This document shows, piece after piece, positions 15,548 through 60,606 of a stretch of 64,000 nucleotides of DNA. Made by a program: the position numbers and the translations under genes. Position 1 is the first letter of the stretch. Each line of letters starts with the position of its first letter. The DNA comes from an uncultured Acidimicrobiia bacterium. GTDB taxonomy: Bacteria; Acidobacteriota; Vicinamibacteria; Vicinamibacterales; UBA2999. The DNA is taken from positions 264,025 to 328,024 of the forward strand of contig CAWCGQ010000002.1 of the NCBI GenBank assembly GCA_963795125.1, read 5' to 3'. The notes below the pieces were generated by a model. The model did no database searches. It was not told the DNA's origin and worked only from the letters and a program-made list of their open reading frames with translations.

Positions 15548-16348
15548 TCAACAGCTACGCCGCGCGGCCGGGAGCTGCCGGCGCGCGACTGCGGGCCGCG
15601 GCCCGTGCCGGTGGCCATCGCGAACAACAGCCAGGCTCAGCGGACCGGCCACGAGCAGGTAGGTCAGGTACTGGCCGTATCGGCCATCCGGGCCATACGG
15701 CTCGGTGGCCCAGTGCAGCGCCTCGCTGTTCGGGCAAGATGTTCGCTTCGGTCAGTTCGTGGAACCCGTAGATCAACAGCTGCGCAACGAACACCAGCAG
15801 GAAGATCGACGTGACCTGGAAGAACAGGCCGAGGTTCACGCGATGGCCGTAGCGCGACCACAGCATGGCGACACGCGGCCGCGGCGAGCGTGCCCGCGAC
15901 CGCGCCGGCAATGATCGTGGCGGCCTGCACCTGCGTGAGCAGCGTGCCCATCAGCAGCGCCGTCTCCATGCCTTCGCGCGAGATCATCAGCAGCGTGAAC
16001 AGGAACACGCCGAGCCCAGGCCGCGGCGCCGGTCTTCGCGGTCGAGGTGCTCAGATGCCCTTCAATCTCGCTCTTGATTTTCTTCGCGGTGCGCCACATG
16101 TGGAGGTCAGCGTCGCGACCGAGACGGCCGCCGCGAGCGCGAGCACGCCTTCCCACAAGGCCTGGTTGGCGGCCTGCTGAGAACAGGTAGGCGGCACCGA
16201 TGCTCAGCAGCACCGACAGCCCGATGCCCCAGTGCACCGCGGGGATCAGTTCACGCCGCCCGCTCTTGCGCAGATACGCAAGGCTGATGGCAATGATGAG
16301 GAACGCCTCGAGGCCTTCCCGGAGCGTGATGACGAATGCCTGCAACAT
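15548..16348 (-). pseudogene. FTR1-family high-affinity iron permease, ~3 frameshifts
   Basis: Two REGxE motifs (TLREGLEAFLI and ISREGMETALL) and a hydrophobic body spread over three frames. Start ATG at 16348. Confidence 0.8.
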
Positions 16349-16373
16349 ACGAGTGACGCCGGTTCCTGCAAAA

Positions 16374-16402
16374 TGAGATTAAGTCTCAGTTCGAGATTCT
16401 CA
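16374..16402. promoter_or_regulatory. candidate operator dyads in the AT-rich divergent FTR1/blaI intergenic region
   Basis: Dyads TGAGAttaagTCTCA (16374-88) and GAGAtTCTC (16393-16401). GAGATT is repeated 18 nt apart. The cognate regulator is unknown. Confidence 0.3.
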
Positions 16403-16478
16403 GCATATGCGACCGATCTGGTCGGAGGCAAGTAATAGATATGTGTGCTAAATTTTCAGCAGGTGCAGAGTTTTTAGC

Positions 16479-16861
16479 ATGAGCCAACACCCCGACCCGC
16501 TCTCCCGCCGCGAACGGCAGATCCTCGACATCCTCTACGCGAAGGGATCGGCGACCGCCGCCGACGTCCGCGAGGCGCTGCCAGATCGCGCCGAGCTACT
16601 CCGCCGTCCGCGCGCTGCTGCGCATTCTCGAGGAGAAGGGCCACGCACGCCATGAGTCGCAGGGCACCAGGTACTCTACCTGCCGCTGGTGCCTCGCGAG
16701 AGCGCGCGCAACTCCGCGCTGACGCGCATCGTCCAAACGTTTTTCGACGGTTCCGCCGGCGCAGGCCGCCGCCGCGCTGGTGGACTCCGGATCGCTGTCG
16801 GACGACGAGCTGAGCGCGGCTCTCGGACCTGATCGAACGGGCAAAGAAAGAAGGACGTTAG
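16479..16861 (+). pseudogene. BlaI/MecI/CopY-family transcriptional repressor, 2 frameshifts
   Basis: MSQHPDPLSRRERQILDILYAKGSATAADVREALPD, then SYSAVRALLRILEEKGH, then DLIERAKKEGR in shifted frames. The TAG lies directly before the blaR1 ATG at 16862. Confidence 0.75.
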
Positions 16862-18289
16862 ATGGACCTCGAACTCGTCGCGCGAACTTCGGTCATCCTG
16901 CTTGCCGCCAGCGTATGCGTCGCGCTGATGCGCCGGGCGGCTCCATCAACGCGTCATCTGGTCTGGCACATCACCATCCTCGTCGTCTTGCTCGCTCCGT
17001 TACTTGCACCGCTCGCGCCAGGAATTGCGGTTCCAGCGGTTCCAGGGGTTCCAGCGGTTCCAACGGCGTCGGTCGGTTGGATACCAGGTTCTGTCGCGCC
17101 GCCAATCGAACTCGGAACCAGTGGAACCCAACCGAACCATGCCGTTGGAACTGCTGGAACCCTTGGAACCCTTGGAACCCTCGGTTCAGGCGCAGTGCTG
17201 TTCTGGTTCGGTTTCTGTTGGTTGCTGAGCGGCGTGAGCGTCTGGCGCGGATCACGACCGGCTCCGGAAACCTGGCTGAACGAAGCGCGGATGGTCGGGC
17301 GGCGCATTGGTCTCGATCGGCCCGTCAGCGTGCGTCAATCGTTGAAAGACGGCAGCCCATTCGTCGCGGGCTTCCTGGAATCCGTCGTGATGATGCCGCC
17401 GTCGGCCCTGTCGTGGACGGTGGAAGCCAGGCAGGCGGCGTTCGTACACGAGTTGACTCACATCAAGCGGCACGATCGACGAACCCAGGCGATGGCCCAG
17501 CTCGCGTGCGCGATCTACTGGTTCAATCCACTCGTCTGGCGTGCCGCCGCCGGTCTCGCGCGCGAGCGTGAGCGCGCGTGTGACGATGAAGTGTTGCGGT
17601 TCGGCGCAAAGCCGTCGGCGTACGCCGCGCTGCTGCTCGAACTGGCGCGCACCAACACTTCGGTGTGGACCCCGGCAACGGCGCTCAGCATGGCGCGTCC
17701 GTCGGCGATTGAAGGCCGCCTGTTGTCGATCCTCGCCGACGCGGCACGCACCCCGCATCGATCGACCCGGTGGCTCGTCGGCGGTGCGATCGTCACCGTC
17801 ACCACGGCAATTCTCGGCGCGCAAGCCGCCACCCCGGCCCCGATCGACAGGCGTCGCGAGTTGGTGCCACCGTCTGCGGTGATGGCGCTCGACGATCAAC
17901 AGCCGATCGCGTCAATTACCGGCGCGCTCGTCGAGGCTTTACACGATACCGATCGCCAGGTTCGCGAGCAGGCCGCAATGGGCCTCGCGCTCACGCCGGG
18001 TGCGGCGGTGATCGAGCCGCTGATCACCGCCTTACGGGATCCCGATGCGCAAGTGCGCGAGAAGGCGGCAATCGGCCTCGCCTTCCGGCGCGATCCGCGA
18101 ATTGTCGGGCCGCTGCTCACGGCGATCGAGGACCGCGATGGCCAGGTCCGTGAGAAAGCGGCGATTGCGCTCGGCGCGAGCGGCGACCCTCGTGCAATCG
18201 CAGCGCTGACCGCGGCGACGAAAGACCCCGATTCGCAGGTCCGGGAGAAAGCGGTCGCGGGCCTCGTGATGCTCGGGCGGCGCCAATGA
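16862..18289 (+). CDS. BlaR1-like M56 peptidase sensor fused to C-terminal HEAT repeats
   Basis: Intact 475-aa ORF. HExxH appears in FVHELTHIKRHD. The C-terminus carries repeated D.DxQVRExAAxxL modules typical of HEAT repeats. Confidence 0.85.
   Translation: MDLELVARTSVILLAASVCVALMRRAAPSTRHLVWHITILVVLLAPLLAPLAPGIAVPAVPGVPAVPTASVGWIPGSVAPPIELGTSGTQPNHAVGTAGTLGTLGTLGSGAVLFWFGFCWLLSGVSVWRGSRPAPETWLNEARMVGRRIGLDRPVSVRQSLKDGSPFVAGFLESVVMMPPSALSWTVEARQAAFVHELTHIKRHDRRTQAMAQLACAIYWFNPLVWRAAAGLARERERACDDEVLRFGAKPSAYAALLLELARTNTSVWTPATALSMARPSAIEGRLLSILADAARTPHRSTRWLVGGAIVTVTTAILGAQAATPAPIDRRRELVPPSAVMALDDQQPIASITGALVEALHDTDRQVREQAAMGLALTPGAAVIEPLITALRDPDAQVREKAAIGLAFRRDPRIVGPLLTAIEDRDGQVREKAAIALGASGDPRAIAALTAATKDPDSQVREKAVAGLVMLGRRQ
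17027..17182. repeat. 156-nt imperfect palindrome built from 9-nt tandem units, embedded in frame in blaR1
   Basis: Left arm 17027-17091 (ggttccagc-type units) is roughly the reverse complement of right arm 17115-17182 (ggaaccctt-type units). The spacer is 23 nt. The element encodes AVPAVPGVPAVP...GTLGTLGTL. Confidence 0.75.
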
Positions 18290-20702
18290 GCGGCGTTCTT
18301 TCGGATCTCAAGCACGGCCTCCGCGTCCTGCTCAGGACGCCTCTCTTCACCATCTGCACGATCGCCGCGCTGGCAATCGGCATCGGAGCGACCACGGCCC
18401 TGTTCAGCGTCGTGCACGCGCTCCTGCTGAAGCCGTTGCCCTACCGGCATGCGGACTCACTGGTCGTGATGTGGGAGCACAACCTGCCGCGCGACCGCCC
18501 GCGCAACGTGATCAGCCCGGCAAATTTCCTGGCGTGGCGGGAGCGGAGCCGATCCTTCGAGGCGATGGCCGCATTCACCCAGAATCGCGTCACGCTCACT
18601 GGAGCGGGCGAACCGCAGGAACTGGCGACGCTGATCGTGTCCGCCAACATCCTCGACGTGCTGGGCGTCGCGCCCGCGCTCGGGCGCGGGTTCCTGACCG
18701 GGGAAGATCGCGAGGGAGCGCCGCCGGTCATGCTGCTGTCTCACGCGGCGTGGCTGAGGCAGTTTGGCGGCACCGCCGGCGTGCTCGGCCGGCAGGCCAC
18801 GATCAACGGCGAGCCGGTGACGATCGTCGGCGTGATGCCGCGCCAGTTCGAGATTTTCGGATTGCCCGCCGACGCCTACCTGCCCTTCCATCTGCCACCG
18901 CAGGTGCCGTTTCGGGGCCGCAGCCTGATCGGCATCGGACGCCTGCTGGACGGGGTGACCCGCGACCAGGCGCAGGCGGAAATGGAAGGCGTGTCGGCGC
19001 AGCTGCGAACCGAGCAGCCTGATTTCAATACCGGCTGGACGGTCAACCTCGTGCCGATGCGCGAGCAGCTGGTCGGTGACGTCCGCCTCGCGGTGCTGGT
19101 GCTGTTCGGCGCCGTCGGCGCGGTGTTGCTGATCGCGTGCGGCAACATCGGCAGCCTGATGCTGACGCGCGCCGCGGGGCGGCGCCGCGAGCTCGCGATT
19201 CGATCGGCGATCGGCGCCGGCACCGGACGCCTGCTCACGCAACTGCTGGCTGAATCGTTGCTGCTGTCGATCGCCGGCGGCGTGTTCGGCATCCTGCTCG
19301 CCGCCTGGATGCTCGGCGGCCTGGCCATCTGGGCCGGGGCTCGCCTCCCGATCCCGTTGATGTCGCAGGTCGCGATCGATCCCAGCGTGCTCGCGTTCGC
19401 GGTGATCGTCACGGTGCTGACGACGCTGATCTGCGGACTCGCTCCGGCGGTGGGCGCCACCGGCGGCTCGCTCGTCACGGCGTTGCGCGACGGCGCGCCA
19501 AGCGTGTCCGGTTCGCGGCGCGGGCGACTGATCAGGCAGTCGTTCGTGATGGCGGAAATTGCGCTCGCACTCACGGTGCTCTGTGGCGCCGGGCTGCTCG
19601 GCCGCAGCCTGCTCGAGCTGCAGAGCGTCAATCCGGGCTTCACCGCGGACTCGGCGTTGACGTTGCGGGTCACGCTGCCACAGCGCTCGTATGCGGATTC
19701 GAACGCGCAGCACGCTTTCTACACCCGGGTGATCGATGGACTCCGCGCGCTTCCGCAGGTGACCTCGGTCGGCGGCGCCTCGTTCCTGCCGCTGGCCGGA
19801 GCGGGCCCAGGCACCTCCTTCTGGCGCGCCGACGCGCCGCAGCCGCCACCCGCCGAGCGCCCGGTGGTTGACGCGCGGCCGGTCACACCCGGCTACTTCA
19901 AGGCCATGGACACGCGGTTGCTGGCCGGACGCGACCTGAGCGACGGCGATACCTCGGACCAGGATCCGGTGGCGGTGATCAACGAGACCTTCGCGCGCCA
20001 GATCTATCCGGGTGACAACCCGATCGGCCGCCGCTTCATCCTGTCGCTCGGCAACGACAAGCCGCACGAGATCGTCGGCGTGGTCGGTGACGTCAAGCTG
20101 GCCTCGATCGAGGGCGAGATTCGGCCGACCGCTTACCTGTCGTCGCGCCAATACGCGTTCGGCTTGATGACCTTCGTGGTGCGCACCACCGGCGATCCGG
20201 CACGGCTCGGTCCCTCGGCGGTGGCCGTGATCCGGCAGATCGATCCGCTGCTGCCGGTCTCGGCGGTGCGGCCGCTCGAGGAAGTGTTCGCCGAATCGAT
20301 CGCGCGCCCGAGACTGACCGCCGCGGCGATGGGCGTGTTCGCGGCCACCGCACTCCTCCTCGCCGCACTTGGCGTCTACGGCATCGTCGCCTATTCGGTG
20401 TCGCAGCGGGCGCGCGAGTTCGGCATTCGCGTGGCGCTCGGCGCCCAGCCGGGACAGATCGTCGGCATGGTGGTCGGCCAGAACCTGCGGGTGGTGGCGC
20501 TCGGCCTCGGCGCTCGGCCTGCTGACCGCGATCCCGGCGACGAGGCTGTTGCGTGGATTGCTGTATCAGGTCGGACCGAACGATCCGATGACGTTCATCG
20601 CGATTGGCGCATTGCTCGCGGGCGTCGCCGCGGTCGCTTCGTACCTGCCGGCACGGCGTGGCACCGCAGGTCGATCCGGTGGTGACGCTGAAGGCCGAGT
20701 GA
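18286..20702 (+). pseudogene. ADOP-type duplicated MacB/FtsX-like permease; intact to ~20510, then 2 frameshifts near the 3' end
   Basis: The N-terminus LKHGLRVLLRTPLFTICTIAALAIGIGATTALFSVVHALLLKPLPY is typical of this family. Its ATG overlaps the blaR1 stop (ATGA). The tail ...LPARRGT/RVDPVVTLKAE ends at 20702. Confidence 0.8.
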
Positions 20703-55231: not shown

Positions 55232-55315
55232 CCGGGCCGCAGACTGGAGCGCCAGGGCCGCAGAAGGCGCAGACGCAGGCTGGAGCACCAGGGCCGGAGA
55301 CGGCGCAGACCGCTC
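55232..55315. repeat. 36-nt coding tandem repeat (2 copies plus a partial) sharing a 22-nt core with 2582-2603
   Basis: Units at 55244-55279 and 55280-55315. ccagggccgcagaaggcgcaga at 55252-55273 is identical to 2582-2603. It encodes SAPSPALVLQ/PASAPSAALALQ. Confidence 0.7.
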
Positions 55316-59011: not shown

Positions 59012-60606
59012 TTGTTCAAGATCTCCATCAAGTAGTCCATCGCGACCTTCGACTTGGTCATCAGTTCGACAGCTTCGACACCATGTCGCGCTTCAGCGCC
59101 GGGTCGGTTTCCTTGCGGGCGATCGCGACCAGCGAGTCGGCGTTGTTCTGCACGAACAAGGCGTTAATCACGTAGCGCTTGATGTCGGCTTCCTTCTCCT
59201 TGGCGTAGATGCCGGCCAGCGCGTCGCCGGTCTTGGCGCGGCCCATCGTGCCGAGGTGCTGCACGGCGCGGCGGCGCAGCTCGGGGTTCTGCTCGGTGTT
59301 GGCGATCTCGATCAAGCGCGTCGCCTCGCCGCTGACGAACAGCGACTGCATGATCTGGCGCTTGACCTCGACGGCGGTCTCCTTCTGATACATCTGCCAC
59401 AGCTCTTCACGCGCGCCCATCGGACCGAGCTGGCGGACCGCCTCGATGCGCAACTCCGGGGTCTTCTCCGTCATCGCCAGGTTGAGCATGCGCGCCTTGT
59501 CGCCGGAGACCATGAACGAGCGGAGAATCTGGCGCTTGACGTCGACGTCGCTCGAGCTCGCGTAGATCTCGGCGAGGATGGCGCGGTTCTCGGTCGAGCC
59601 GTGCACGCCGAGATACTGAATCGCGCGGCGCTGCACGTCGGGATTGCGCGGCGCCCTTCGCCGCCGCCGTCATCACCTGGCGCGCGCGCGGCGAGTTGCT
59701 CTGCGCGAGCACGAACAACGCGCGCGCCTTCAACTGCGGCGACGCGGTGCCTGACAGGATCTTCTCGAGCATCGGCACCGCCTGCTCCGGATCCGAGTGC
59801 TGCAGACCCTGGATGGCGAGCAGCTTCAGCTCTTCATCCGATTCGGCTTCGGGGCGCGGCGCCTGGCCGGCGTTCTGGCGCACCTGCAGCTCGAGCGCTC
59901 TGGCGTCGCTGATCCAGCGGCTCTGCGGGAAGCGCTTGATCAGACTCCTGCACCGCGGCCAGCGCGTCGGCCTGCTGGTTCAACTTGTCGAGCGCGTAGG
60001 CCTTCCAGTACAGCGCCGCGTCGACGCGATTCGAGTTCTCGGCCTCGATCACGCGGCGTGAACGAGTCCGCGGCGCGCGCCCAGGCGCGGCGCTCCAGGC
60101 TTTCCTGGCCGCGCTGATAGTTCTCGTCGATGCGCTGACGACGCTCGGACTCGCGCTGCTTGGCCTCTTCGGCGCGCTGGCGTTCTTCGTCGGCGCGTTG
60201 TCTGGTGTCGTCCTCACGCGACCGCTGCTCACCGCCGAACGCCAAGCCGCTGCGGCCCGCCCGACGGCAGTCGAGCGCGCCGCGCGCCAGCACGGCGCTG
60301 CGGCTGGCAGCTTGGCCAGGACGGCGCCAAGGTCAGGCAGATCGCGGCAGGTCAGGCAGCATCGGGCAGGTCCGGCAGCATCGGCAGGTCGAACATCGGC
60401 AGTCACCGGCAGATCGAACATCGGCATCGGCGGCATTCGGCGCGATCATCGGCACCGGCGGCACCATCGGCGTCGGCATCACCGGCGCAATCATCGGCGT
60501 CGGTGGAACCGGCGGCACCGGCAGAACCTGTGCCGACACCATCGCCGGCATCGAGAGGACGCGCGCCATCATCAACGCGCGTCCGGTTTAGCTTCACAAC
60601 ACTCAT
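59008..60606 (-). pseudogene. Met/Pro-rich, charged coiled region plus HEAT-repeat protein, ~5 frameshifts
   Basis: N-terminal PMxxP low-complexity stretch, then an E/R/Q-rich segment, then HEAT modules (NPDVQRRAIQYLG, TPELRIEAVRQLG, NPELRRRAVQHLG). The probable end ...MDYLMEILNK is in a shifted frame. Confidence 0.55.
60331..60553. repeat. low-complexity quasi-repeat (catcggc / caggtc units) encoding the Met/Pro-rich region
   Basis: catcggca, catcggcg and ggcaggtc motifs recur irregularly. There is no repeat-spacer architecture. Confidence 0.6.

Follow-up and report, generated by a model that had tools for sequence, protein, structure and literature searches.

Several classes of palindromic repeat have been described in bacterial genomes. 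According to the summary of Ogata et al. (2000) in PMC10969869, Rickettsia palindromic elements (RPEs) are palindromes of approximately 100-150 nt that occur in frame in unrelated genes as well as in intergenic DNA; they add a tolerated peptide segment to the encoded protein, and that summary gives the mechanism of their spread as unknown. [quoted passage not shown] Repetitive extragenic palindromes (REPs), as characterised in PMC3733652, are 20-40 nt in length, extragenic and marked by a GTAG/CGTC tag. This study concerns a 156-nt palindrome inside a blaR1-like gene, located at positions 17027-17182 of a 64-kb stretch of DNA from an uncultured bacterium assigned to the Vicinamibacterales, Acidobacteriota (assembly GCA_963795125.1, contig CAWCGQ010000002.1, positions 264,025 to 328,024; 64,000 nt in all, hereafter the window). 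With a probability of roughly one half, we read these 156 nt as an ancient in-frame resident that belongs to a dispersed family of nonamer-array palindromes, is kept as a hairpin and acts as an mRNA stem-loop.

A nonamer-array hairpin in the blaR1 reading frame

An earlier note, made from the sequence of the window, had proposed a 156-nt palindrome composed of 9-nt tandem units within blaR1, and this was borne out by repeat searches and by folding. The inverted-repeat search used for arm detection located a 5' arm at 17029-17086 and a 3' arm at 17122-17179 (all features are on the plus strand), each of 58 nt, 84% complementary, with 35 nt between them, and the two arms are paired in the minimum free energy (MFE) structure. 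The arms of approximately 65 nt, 80% complementarity and 23-nt spacer given in the note differ from these values only through the choice of arm end, because the fold pairs part of the spacer; the apical region at 17087-17121 is partly paired (GGTTCTG.../...CGGAACC) in both the RNA and the DNA MFE structures. Tandem Repeats Finder (TRF), which was used to identify the arrays, placed the left array at 17027-17066 with a period of 9, the unit GCGGTTCCA and 4.4 copies; it is read in translation as A/G-V-P ((GCG GTT CCA) x4.4) and was also recovered by the repeat search. The right array, read as G-T-L, occupies 17145-17181 and consists of three (T GGA ACC CT) units, identified by TRF at 17155-17181 (period 9, unit TGGAACCCT, 3.0 copies), and one degenerate fourth unit starting at 17145.

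Translation confirmed that the element comprises 52 codons and preserves the frame, the ORF at 16862-18289 being open throughout, and that the encoded peptide, AVPAVPGVPAVPTASVGW...HAVGTAGTLGTLGTL (also given as AVPAVPGVPAVPT...GTAGTLGTLGTL), lies between hydrophobic segments upstream of the HExxH motif HELTH, all as the note had stated. The length is likewise a multiple of three, with the host frame kept, in 24 orthologous loci and in the XseA copies described below. In its dimensions the element corresponds to an RPE-like sequence, that is, an imperfect palindrome of approximately 100-150 nt with a long stem-loop. The rest of the 64-kb window yielded no second copy, and inspection of the element revealed neither terminal repeats nor target duplications.

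Folding of positions 17020-17190 as RNA produced a single long hairpin with an MFE of -113.7 kcal/mol, compared to -62.2 +/- 4.5 kcal/mol for dinucleotide shuffles of the same interval (z = -11.4, with 0 of 200 shuffles equalling the native value), and folding with DNA parameters gave z = -8.4. The complementarity of the arms is therefore better than that of shuffled sequence; the opposite outcome is the one that the note had named as capable of overturning its claim. When synonymous codons were permuted inside the loop, leaving the protein unchanged, the native fold still stood at z = -6.8. A loop recoded with gene-wide codon usage folded about equally well; this control is uninformative because the codons are GC-rich and complementarity between Val-Pro (VP) and Gly-Thr (GT) is built in, and synonymous permutation and wobble covariation served in its place.

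Conservation among blaR1 orthologues

The best 120 homologues of the protein share 64-74% identity with it at 95-100% query coverage, and almost all are 450-498 aa long, the exception being the database protein P0018 (see below). In the protein alignment, the loop between transmembrane helices 2 and 3 (TM2 and TM3) is conserved as VPxVPxVP ... GTQQN.A.GTxGTxGT, with V, P, G and T residues nearly invariant. Both VPxVP and GTxGT were present in the TM2-TM3 loop of 97 of the 119 full-length homologues, VP only in 15, GT only in 6 and neither in 1. At the nucleotide level, 78 metagenome loci were retrieved through conserved peptides distant from the loop, and loop DNA was taken from 24 of these; all but two or three contained the same long hairpin, with left arms of the form (G GTT CCA nn)x3-7 and right arms of the form (T GGA ACC nn)x3-7. 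Orthologues at 61-76% identity share both loop and palindrome, and the window element is 77-82% identical to the orthologous copies, values that are inflated by the arrays.

Hairpin-less homologues also exist. Degenerate loops of similar length were found at L020 and L028 (63-66% identity) and at L022 (56%), while paralogues at 37-44% identity have a loop of similar length with at most a GT array before TM3; the distant paralogues L027 and L040 have GT repeats at this position and no VP arm. Because hairpin-less homologues keep a similar loop length, the 52 codons cannot be shown to be an insertion, and the in-frame insertion suggested in the earlier note is not one peculiar to this gene copy, since orthologues carry the same loop and palindrome. 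That note had also allowed that orthologues might carry the loop without palindromy, whereas palindromy is present in them. Judging from these sequence comparisons, the element is older than the divergence of the blaR1 orthologue clade and is not a private or recent insertion.

The arrays turn over in 9-nt steps, and L001 and L025 differ by exactly two units. Such stepwise change in copy number is what would be expected if the 156 nt were selfish or neutral repeat DNA, generated and made uniform by mutation alone (slippage within an arm and intrastrand template switching between arms), tolerated by a disordered loop and forming a hairpin without function. The predicted disorder of the encoded peptide and the decay of the hairpin in L020, L028 and L022, where the gene is retained, are consistent with this explanation. 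However, the element has been kept at one site in 97 of 119 homologues, down to 64% protein identity, and on all the evidence we consider neutral repeat DNA an unlikely explanation, albeit one that deserves serious attention.

Covariation at silent positions

The codons for Val-Pro (GTN CCN) and those for Gly-Thr (GGN ACN) are reverse complements with an offset of one base, and wobble positions therefore pair with wobble positions in the stem: Val3 pairs with Gly3, Pro3 with x3 of the preceding right-arm x codon, and left x3 with Thr3. Across 107 units of the left arrays and 101 of the right, codon choice at these positions is strongly skewed, with T at 78% of Val3, A at 76% of Pro3 and A at 74% of Gly3. 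Outside the arrays in the same genes, GTT accounts for 8% of the codons for Val, CCA for 10% of those for Pro and GGA for 18% of those for Gly. Of the three positions of the variable x codon, the first and second are close to random and the third is conserved, the reverse of what protein-level selection would leave. Third-position identity between orthologues exceeded the background just slightly (0.61-0.66 against 0.51), and this background is itself uniform as a result of GC bias.

The paired positions also change together. Most orthologues carry GTTCCA/TGGAAC; L001/L025 and L018/L019/L026 carry GTGCCN/NGGCAC, and L021 carries GTTCCT/AGGAAC. RNAalifold analysis of 14 orthologues identified three helices of 7-8 bp with 22 pairs, of which 8 are changed on both sides: at Val3:Gly3 every one of the three helices shows UA replaced by GC, and at Pro3:x3 AU is replaced by UA. 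The stem thus resembles a duplex of approximately 60 bp with a defect every 9 nt, since one or two mismatched positions lie between successive helices. In a neighbour-joining tree built from the protease domain, GTG/GGC is carried by two groups that stand apart, namely L001/L025 (beside L003) and the clade of L018/L019/L026, and L021, with its CCT/..A state, differs from its sisters L016 and L031; the tree thus points to three or more paired switches that arose independently. The compensatory changes are those expected of a conserved structured RNA element within a coding region, and silent covariation, rare codons and a disordered loop together indicate that selection or homogenisation acts on the nucleic acid and not on the peptide. 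Both the persistence of rare codons against the genome codon bias and the recurrence of paired switches in separate clades argue against neutral repeat DNA.

These patterns also bear on the possibility that the protein is what is selected, with (V-P-x)n and (G-T-x)n serving as a flexible, extended periplasmic linker and the palindrome arising as a by-product of codon complementarity. The near invariance of V, P, G and T in the protein alignment agrees with this, as do the GT repeats before TM3 in L027 and L040, which lack a VP arm, and the VP-only arrays with charged x residues that dominate in XseA and resemble proline-rich spacers. However, a linker leaves unexplained the wobble covariation between the arms, the use of rare codons and the third-position conservation of an otherwise free x codon; elsewhere these nucleotides are translated in other frames, giving GSx, LEP or WN, and they also occur in intergenic copies, and the loop is predicted to be disordered. 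As a sole cause, a protein-level linker is largely refuted by wobble covariation and frame diversity, and we regard this explanation as very improbable.

A dispersed family of nonamer arrays

Genome and viral collections were searched for exact matches to three consecutive GTTCCA-N3 units, and the figures that follow are among the matches listed, which include at least 120 genome loci. Many listed matches are ordinary collagen-like or other coding repeats. The full layout, with GTTCCA arrays followed by TGGAAC arrays within 300 nt, was present at approximately 28 of 120 genome loci and at a few viral ones, and the opposite arm order was seen once or twice; this bias represents a real polarity because the layout reads the same on both strands. 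The arms of the family can be written 5' (N GGTTCCA N)n and 3' (N TGGAACC N)n. Loci were found in Vicinamibacterales, other Acidobacteriota, Binatia, Syntrophobacterales and other 'delta' metagenome-assembled genomes (MAGs), Bacteroidota, Chloroflexota and a Bathyarchaeia archaeon, as well as on viral contigs, and some genomes supplied several of the listed loci, with at least three each from the related MAGs SMAG_U2079 (L119, L130 and L162) and VAR_78 (L136, L140 and L168). No blaR1 orthologue was identified among the 120 listed genome loci by tblastn.

As in an RPE-like family, copies occur in unrelated genes and in intergenic DNA, and the earlier note's concern that there might be no other copies anywhere is answered by those in the XseA linker, between genes and in other genes. 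Several copies have stop codons in all six frames, and all eight intergenic copies for which flanking ORFs were read (L079, L124, L128, L133, two in L152, L220 and L264) sit approximately 5-60 nt past a stop codon, which is the usual place of RNA 3' hairpins. Additional copies lie in the region upstream of uvrA, in a PQQ-like signal peptide and in the linker of a CadC-like regulator. Some arrays have a single arm; these include one giving VPx in a signal-peptide n-region (L130), one giving GSx in the CadC-like regulator linker (L098), one giving GTx in a large outer-membrane-type protein (L163) and others just after stop codons (L094, L190). Taken over the different proteins, translation of the arrays yields VPx, GSx, GTx or LEP/WN, in three reading frames. 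The window element shares 80-82% identity with L119, an intergenic hairpin, and with L320 and L321, the hairpins in XseA, values that are again inflated by the arrays; alignment scores for real pairs were 52-76, compared to about 7 for shuffled controls.

That independent loci, read in different frames, use a single rare-codon hexamer speaks for a common nucleotide source and against independent protein-level expansions. The occurrence of this hexamer in unrelated phyla, with constant arm polarity, likewise counts against neutral repeat DNA; retention, rare codons, recurrent switches and the cross-phylum hexamer would not be expected from local mutation alone.

A conserved hexamer could also reflect binding of a protein to the DNA. 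In such a scheme, GTTCCA sites repeated every 9 bp and converging from the two arms would be recognised by a ribbon-helix-helix, AbrB-like or ParB-like protein, and the arms would co-vary because both match that protein. This would account for conservation of the hexamer alongside variable 2-3 nt spacers, for the arm order (GTTCCA upstream of TGGAAC in about 28 loci, against 1-2 reversed), for the existence of single-arm arrays and for the finding that, in 2.3 Mb of gathered sequence biased to the motif, only GTTCCA-type hexamers gave palindromic period-9 arrays, with no other hexamer and no other period. The (CTTGGAACC)x11 array of plasmid p11K1, next to CopG-family and relaxase genes, is a further point in its favour. 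However, no candidate binding protein was linked to the loci, a 9-bp period puts the sites off one helix face, and the spacers pair as well in the best-preserved copies, for example in the window. In addition, the hexamer becomes GTGCCN or GTTCCT inside one gene family with the partner arm following, so that the specificity of the binding protein would have to change repeatedly. A DNA-level binding array is accordingly improbable. Putative resemblances to a parS half-site, AbrB TGGNA motifs, a tRNA T-loop and sigma-54 or extracytoplasmic function (ECF) promoters were also considered.

When the element was compared by BLAST with GenBank phages, nothing matched, and with PLSDB plasmids there was a single match, the one-armed array just mentioned. 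It lies on the Pseudomonas viciae plasmid p11K1 (NZ_CP035089 4556-4644; L319 2505-2595), its repeated unit is that of the window right arm, and the genes directly downstream of it encode a ribbon-helix-helix protein of the CopG family and a TraI/MobA relaxase; this region is a probable oriT or operator.

Other repeat-rich regions were observed in the course of these searches. In an uncultured deltaproteobacterial MAG, L080 443-6034 contains eight same-orientation GTTCCA-type arrays in 8 kb, with few long ORFs between them and conserved array flanks such as GGATACC-GTTCCAATAGTTCCA, and L079 4386-7901, also from an uncultured deltaproteobacterial MAG, was grouped with it as a repeat-dense region. 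Binatia hairpins (L096 2210-2332 and 6434-6544; L142 1228-1344; L150 3564-3708) consist of GTTCAA/TTGAAC or GTTCCA/TGGAAC arrays and represent a lineage-specific dispersed repeat family, since they have the inner GC-rich stem CCTCCCCCGCG...CGCGGGGGAGG in common. A Bathyarchaeia MAG (L097 3568-3680) carries a TGTTCCA/TGGAACA nonamer hairpin in frame in an 869-aa archaeal ORF (VPPVPTVP...GTPGTGGT); its unit presumably resembles the parS half-site TGTTCCAC. Within the window itself, a different 9-nt motif, (CGCAGAAGG)n with the common flank CAGGGCCGCAGAAGGCGCAGA, occurs at 2578-2650 and 55238-55310, where it is read as Pro-Ser-Ala-rich on the minus strand, the latter copy being preceded by an apparent signal peptide. 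At 60330-60523 there is a long low-complexity tract of imperfect period 9 (TRF periods 9 to 45), which is read as Pro/Met-rich on the minus strand, in an ORF that looks disrupted.

Copies in the XseA linker

One of the family hairpins (L082 4583-4689) lies in the N-terminal linker of XseA, and 120 orthologues of this protein (P0121-P0240, 76-90% identity) were examined. In Vicinamibacterales, XseA begins with MSRLPFDDE, continues with a hypervariable linker and then resumes at TVSELNA; the number of VPx units in the linker runs from 0 to about 10, and parts reading GSKG, LEP or GTx often accompany them. The canonical start is present in 72 orthologues; of these, both arms occur in 11, VP only in 33, GT only in 3 and neither in 25. 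Full hairpins of the form (AAGGTTCCA)x4-5 ... (CTGGAACCC)x3-4 are present at L320 466-609 and L321 631-753, while L322 has a VP-only array of the GTGCCT variant and L323 has no array. The L322 array (630-710, (AAGGTGCCT)x8) is self-complementary as RNA, in which GGUGCC pairs with itself through two G.U pairs, and not as DNA; a one-armed array of this type can still fold because of these G.U pairs.

XseA orthologues thus differ in both the presence and the copy number of the repeats, and no clean empty site was found among them. This extreme polymorphism in presence and length, seen among orthologues at 77-90% identity, is the kind of pattern that neutral repeat DNA would produce.

Proposed mechanism and points against it

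Under the mRNA stem-loop reading, the element would form a stem-loop in the blaI-blaR1 transcript that may slow or limit translation of blaR1 once TM1-TM2 have emerged. Alternatively or additionally, it could act as a 3' barrier or processing site that protects the upstream blaI segment. Either effect would leave the sensor scarce relative to the co-transcribed repressor, and the encoded peptide would merely be tolerated as a linker. The family may spread or regenerate by some route, after which slippage during replication and template switches from one arm to the other would reshape its arrays. Both the mobility and the function of the element are inferred. XseA is required in lower amounts than XseB, and the placement of the arrays at codons ~14-60 of XseA therefore fits the idea of low output, which is plausibly wanted in both hosts (sensor relative to repressor, and XseA relative to XseB).

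Several observations weigh against this mechanism. Arm mismatches counted without an energy model are flat, with 47 of G.U type and 52 of A.C type, so that nothing singles out the sense RNA over DNA or over the antisense strand; the lack of a strand-specific G.U signature is also what neutral repeat DNA would predict. The hexamer sequence itself is conserved, and not just its pairing, with a fixed polarity in which GTTCCA is always 5', and an argument from stability alone fails to predict either. The hairpin has been lost in L020, L028 and L022 with the gene still intact, and it is not obligatory for the family, because most XseA copies have a single arm (33 VP only compared to 11 with both). 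There is no terminator-like U tract 3' of the stem. Finally, template switching between arms, a form of concerted evolution, could mimic selection for pairing.

Other RNA-level and recombination-related assignments were also considered. In the RNAalifold structure the eighth pair of each helix is mostly G.U, a feature confounded with amino-acid preferences at the x residues. Searches against Rfam 15 gave only sub-threshold matches to microRNA precursors in the window (E-value threshold) and none in nine related loci (gathering threshold). An intrinsic terminator was ruled out, as there is no U tract and no terminator-like site in 16300-18400, and an integron attC site was rejected since the core polarity is opposite to that of such sites.

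A broader proposal, which we consider unlikely but worth stating, is that the cross-phylum class (GTTCCA-N3)n ... (N3-TGGAAC)n, with its fixed polarity, is an undescribed functional nucleic-acid module. Such a module might serve as a signal for RNA processing or stability, or else as an array bound by a widespread protein, and it would work equally well in 3' untranslated regions and inside coding sequences, where it would force the peptide VPx...GTx. No description of a nonamer-array family was found in the literature searched (open-access papers). If the mRNA stem-loop reading is true, this would be a clear example from bacteria of a conserved protein loop whose sequence has been set, through long spans of evolution, by an extended nucleic-acid structure; the reverse complementarity of their codons would be the reason for the Val-Pro and Gly-Thr repeats, not vice versa. 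In-frame palindromic elements would in that case extend from Rickettsia to the abundant GC-rich Acidobacteriota of soils, and the family would provide a tractable system in which selfish passengers can be compared with expression-tuning devices.

Host gene and operon

The host gene (16862-18289) encodes a 475-aa BlaR1-like M56 metalloprotease with C-terminal HEAT repeats, as indicated by its ORF and by the domains of its homologues (PF05569, Peptidase_M56, and HEAT). These homologues are called M56 metallopeptidase or BlaR1 by their source databases and, where named, belong mostly to Vicinamibacterales (Acidobacteriota). The assignment is supported by an M56 domain with its HExxH motif (HELTH at nt 17447-17461), a multi-pass membrane N-terminus and an adjacent blaI-type gene. 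The protein is BlaR1-like and not a beta-lactam sensor, because its C-terminal domain consists of HEAT repeats in place of a penicillin-binding sensor.

An AlphaFold model built on a 24-sequence alignment has a mean predicted local distance difference test (pLDDT) score of 66.6 and helices at residues 3-25, 28-51 and 98-129. TM2 (about residues 34-52) is encoded at 16961-17017, directly 5' of the element, as judged from hydrophobic sequence and from model helices at 28-43 and 45-51; TM3 (about residues 109-128) is encoded at 17186-17245, directly 3' of the element, and is indicated by the helix at 98-129 and by the conserved WFxFCWLLSG. Residues 52-107 have pLDDT values below 50 and are without secondary structure in the model, and the TM2-TM3 loop is accordingly predicted to be disordered. 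Based on the positive-inside rule, the loop probably faces the periplasm and the protease domain the cytoplasm.

Immediately upstream lies a blaI-like repressor gene (16479-16861), the stop codon of which abuts the blaR1 ATG. A blaI-type gene is directly upstream in 7 orthologue loci, where it is intact and encodes 126 aa. In the window, ORF fragments matching these 126-aa orthologues are spread over three reading frames through at least three frameshifts; the gene is either a pseudogene or affected by assembly indel errors.

The database protein P0018 is 100% identical to the window ORF over 70% coverage and is 332 aa long, a length that implies a start at Met144 (window 17291), 3' of the hairpin. 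It appears to be the source genome's own gene call, in which the gene caller seems to have skipped the hairpin, and it serves as a warning for annotation, given that the call begins beyond the element.

Comparison with known systems

REPs are linked to RAYT transposases and act as RNA 3' barriers in the malEFG operon. The intergenic relatives of the blaR1 element, located 5-60 nt past stop codons, could likewise be RNA 3' barriers, in the manner of REPs, bacterial interspersed mosaic elements (BIMEs) and terminator-like intergenic hairpins such as SPRITE. The blaR1 element itself is set apart from REPs and BIMEs, as it is 150 nt long, coding, built from arrays and starts with GGTTCC, whereas REPs are short, extragenic and tagged. 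Compared to MITEs, the element has flanks without duplications, and no transposase-bearing relative was found between array pairs in a search that was not exhaustive.

Palindromic amphipathic repeat coding elements (PARCELs) are similar to the blaR1 element in being coding tandem repeats with DNA dyad symmetry that are sporadically distributed and often found in membrane-targeted proteins. However, PARCELs are 25-residue amphipathic domains identified by a protein hidden Markov model, while the blaR1 element has a 3-codon unit, a disordered peptide and a hexamer conserved at the nucleotide level. Quasi-palindromes are corrected by intrastrand template switching, and tandem repeats expand by slipped-strand replication. 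These processes account for the alike arms and the 9-nt steps of the blaR1 element; as mutational processes, however, they leave the recurrence of the hexamer, its polarity and the rare codons unexplained.

The closest known kind is, by analogy, the RPE suggested in the earlier note. RPEs differ in that they are not built from 9-nt tandem units and occur in Rickettsia at dozens of copies per genome, compared to one copy of the blaR1 element in 64 kb. The blaR1 element is also orthologously conserved across a deep clade of GC-rich Acidobacteriota with compensatory silent changes, and its presence in orthologues departs from the absence expected of an RPE-like insertion. In the analogy as originally drawn, the step of insertion thus cannot be shown, whereas the nucleotide-level, in-frame palindrome, belonging to a family, stands. 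Both systems consist of in-frame palindromes with coding and intergenic copies and a tolerated peptide. Because the family also occurs in other genes, in other frames and between genes, the analogy holds in the sense that the blaR1 element may work like an RPE.

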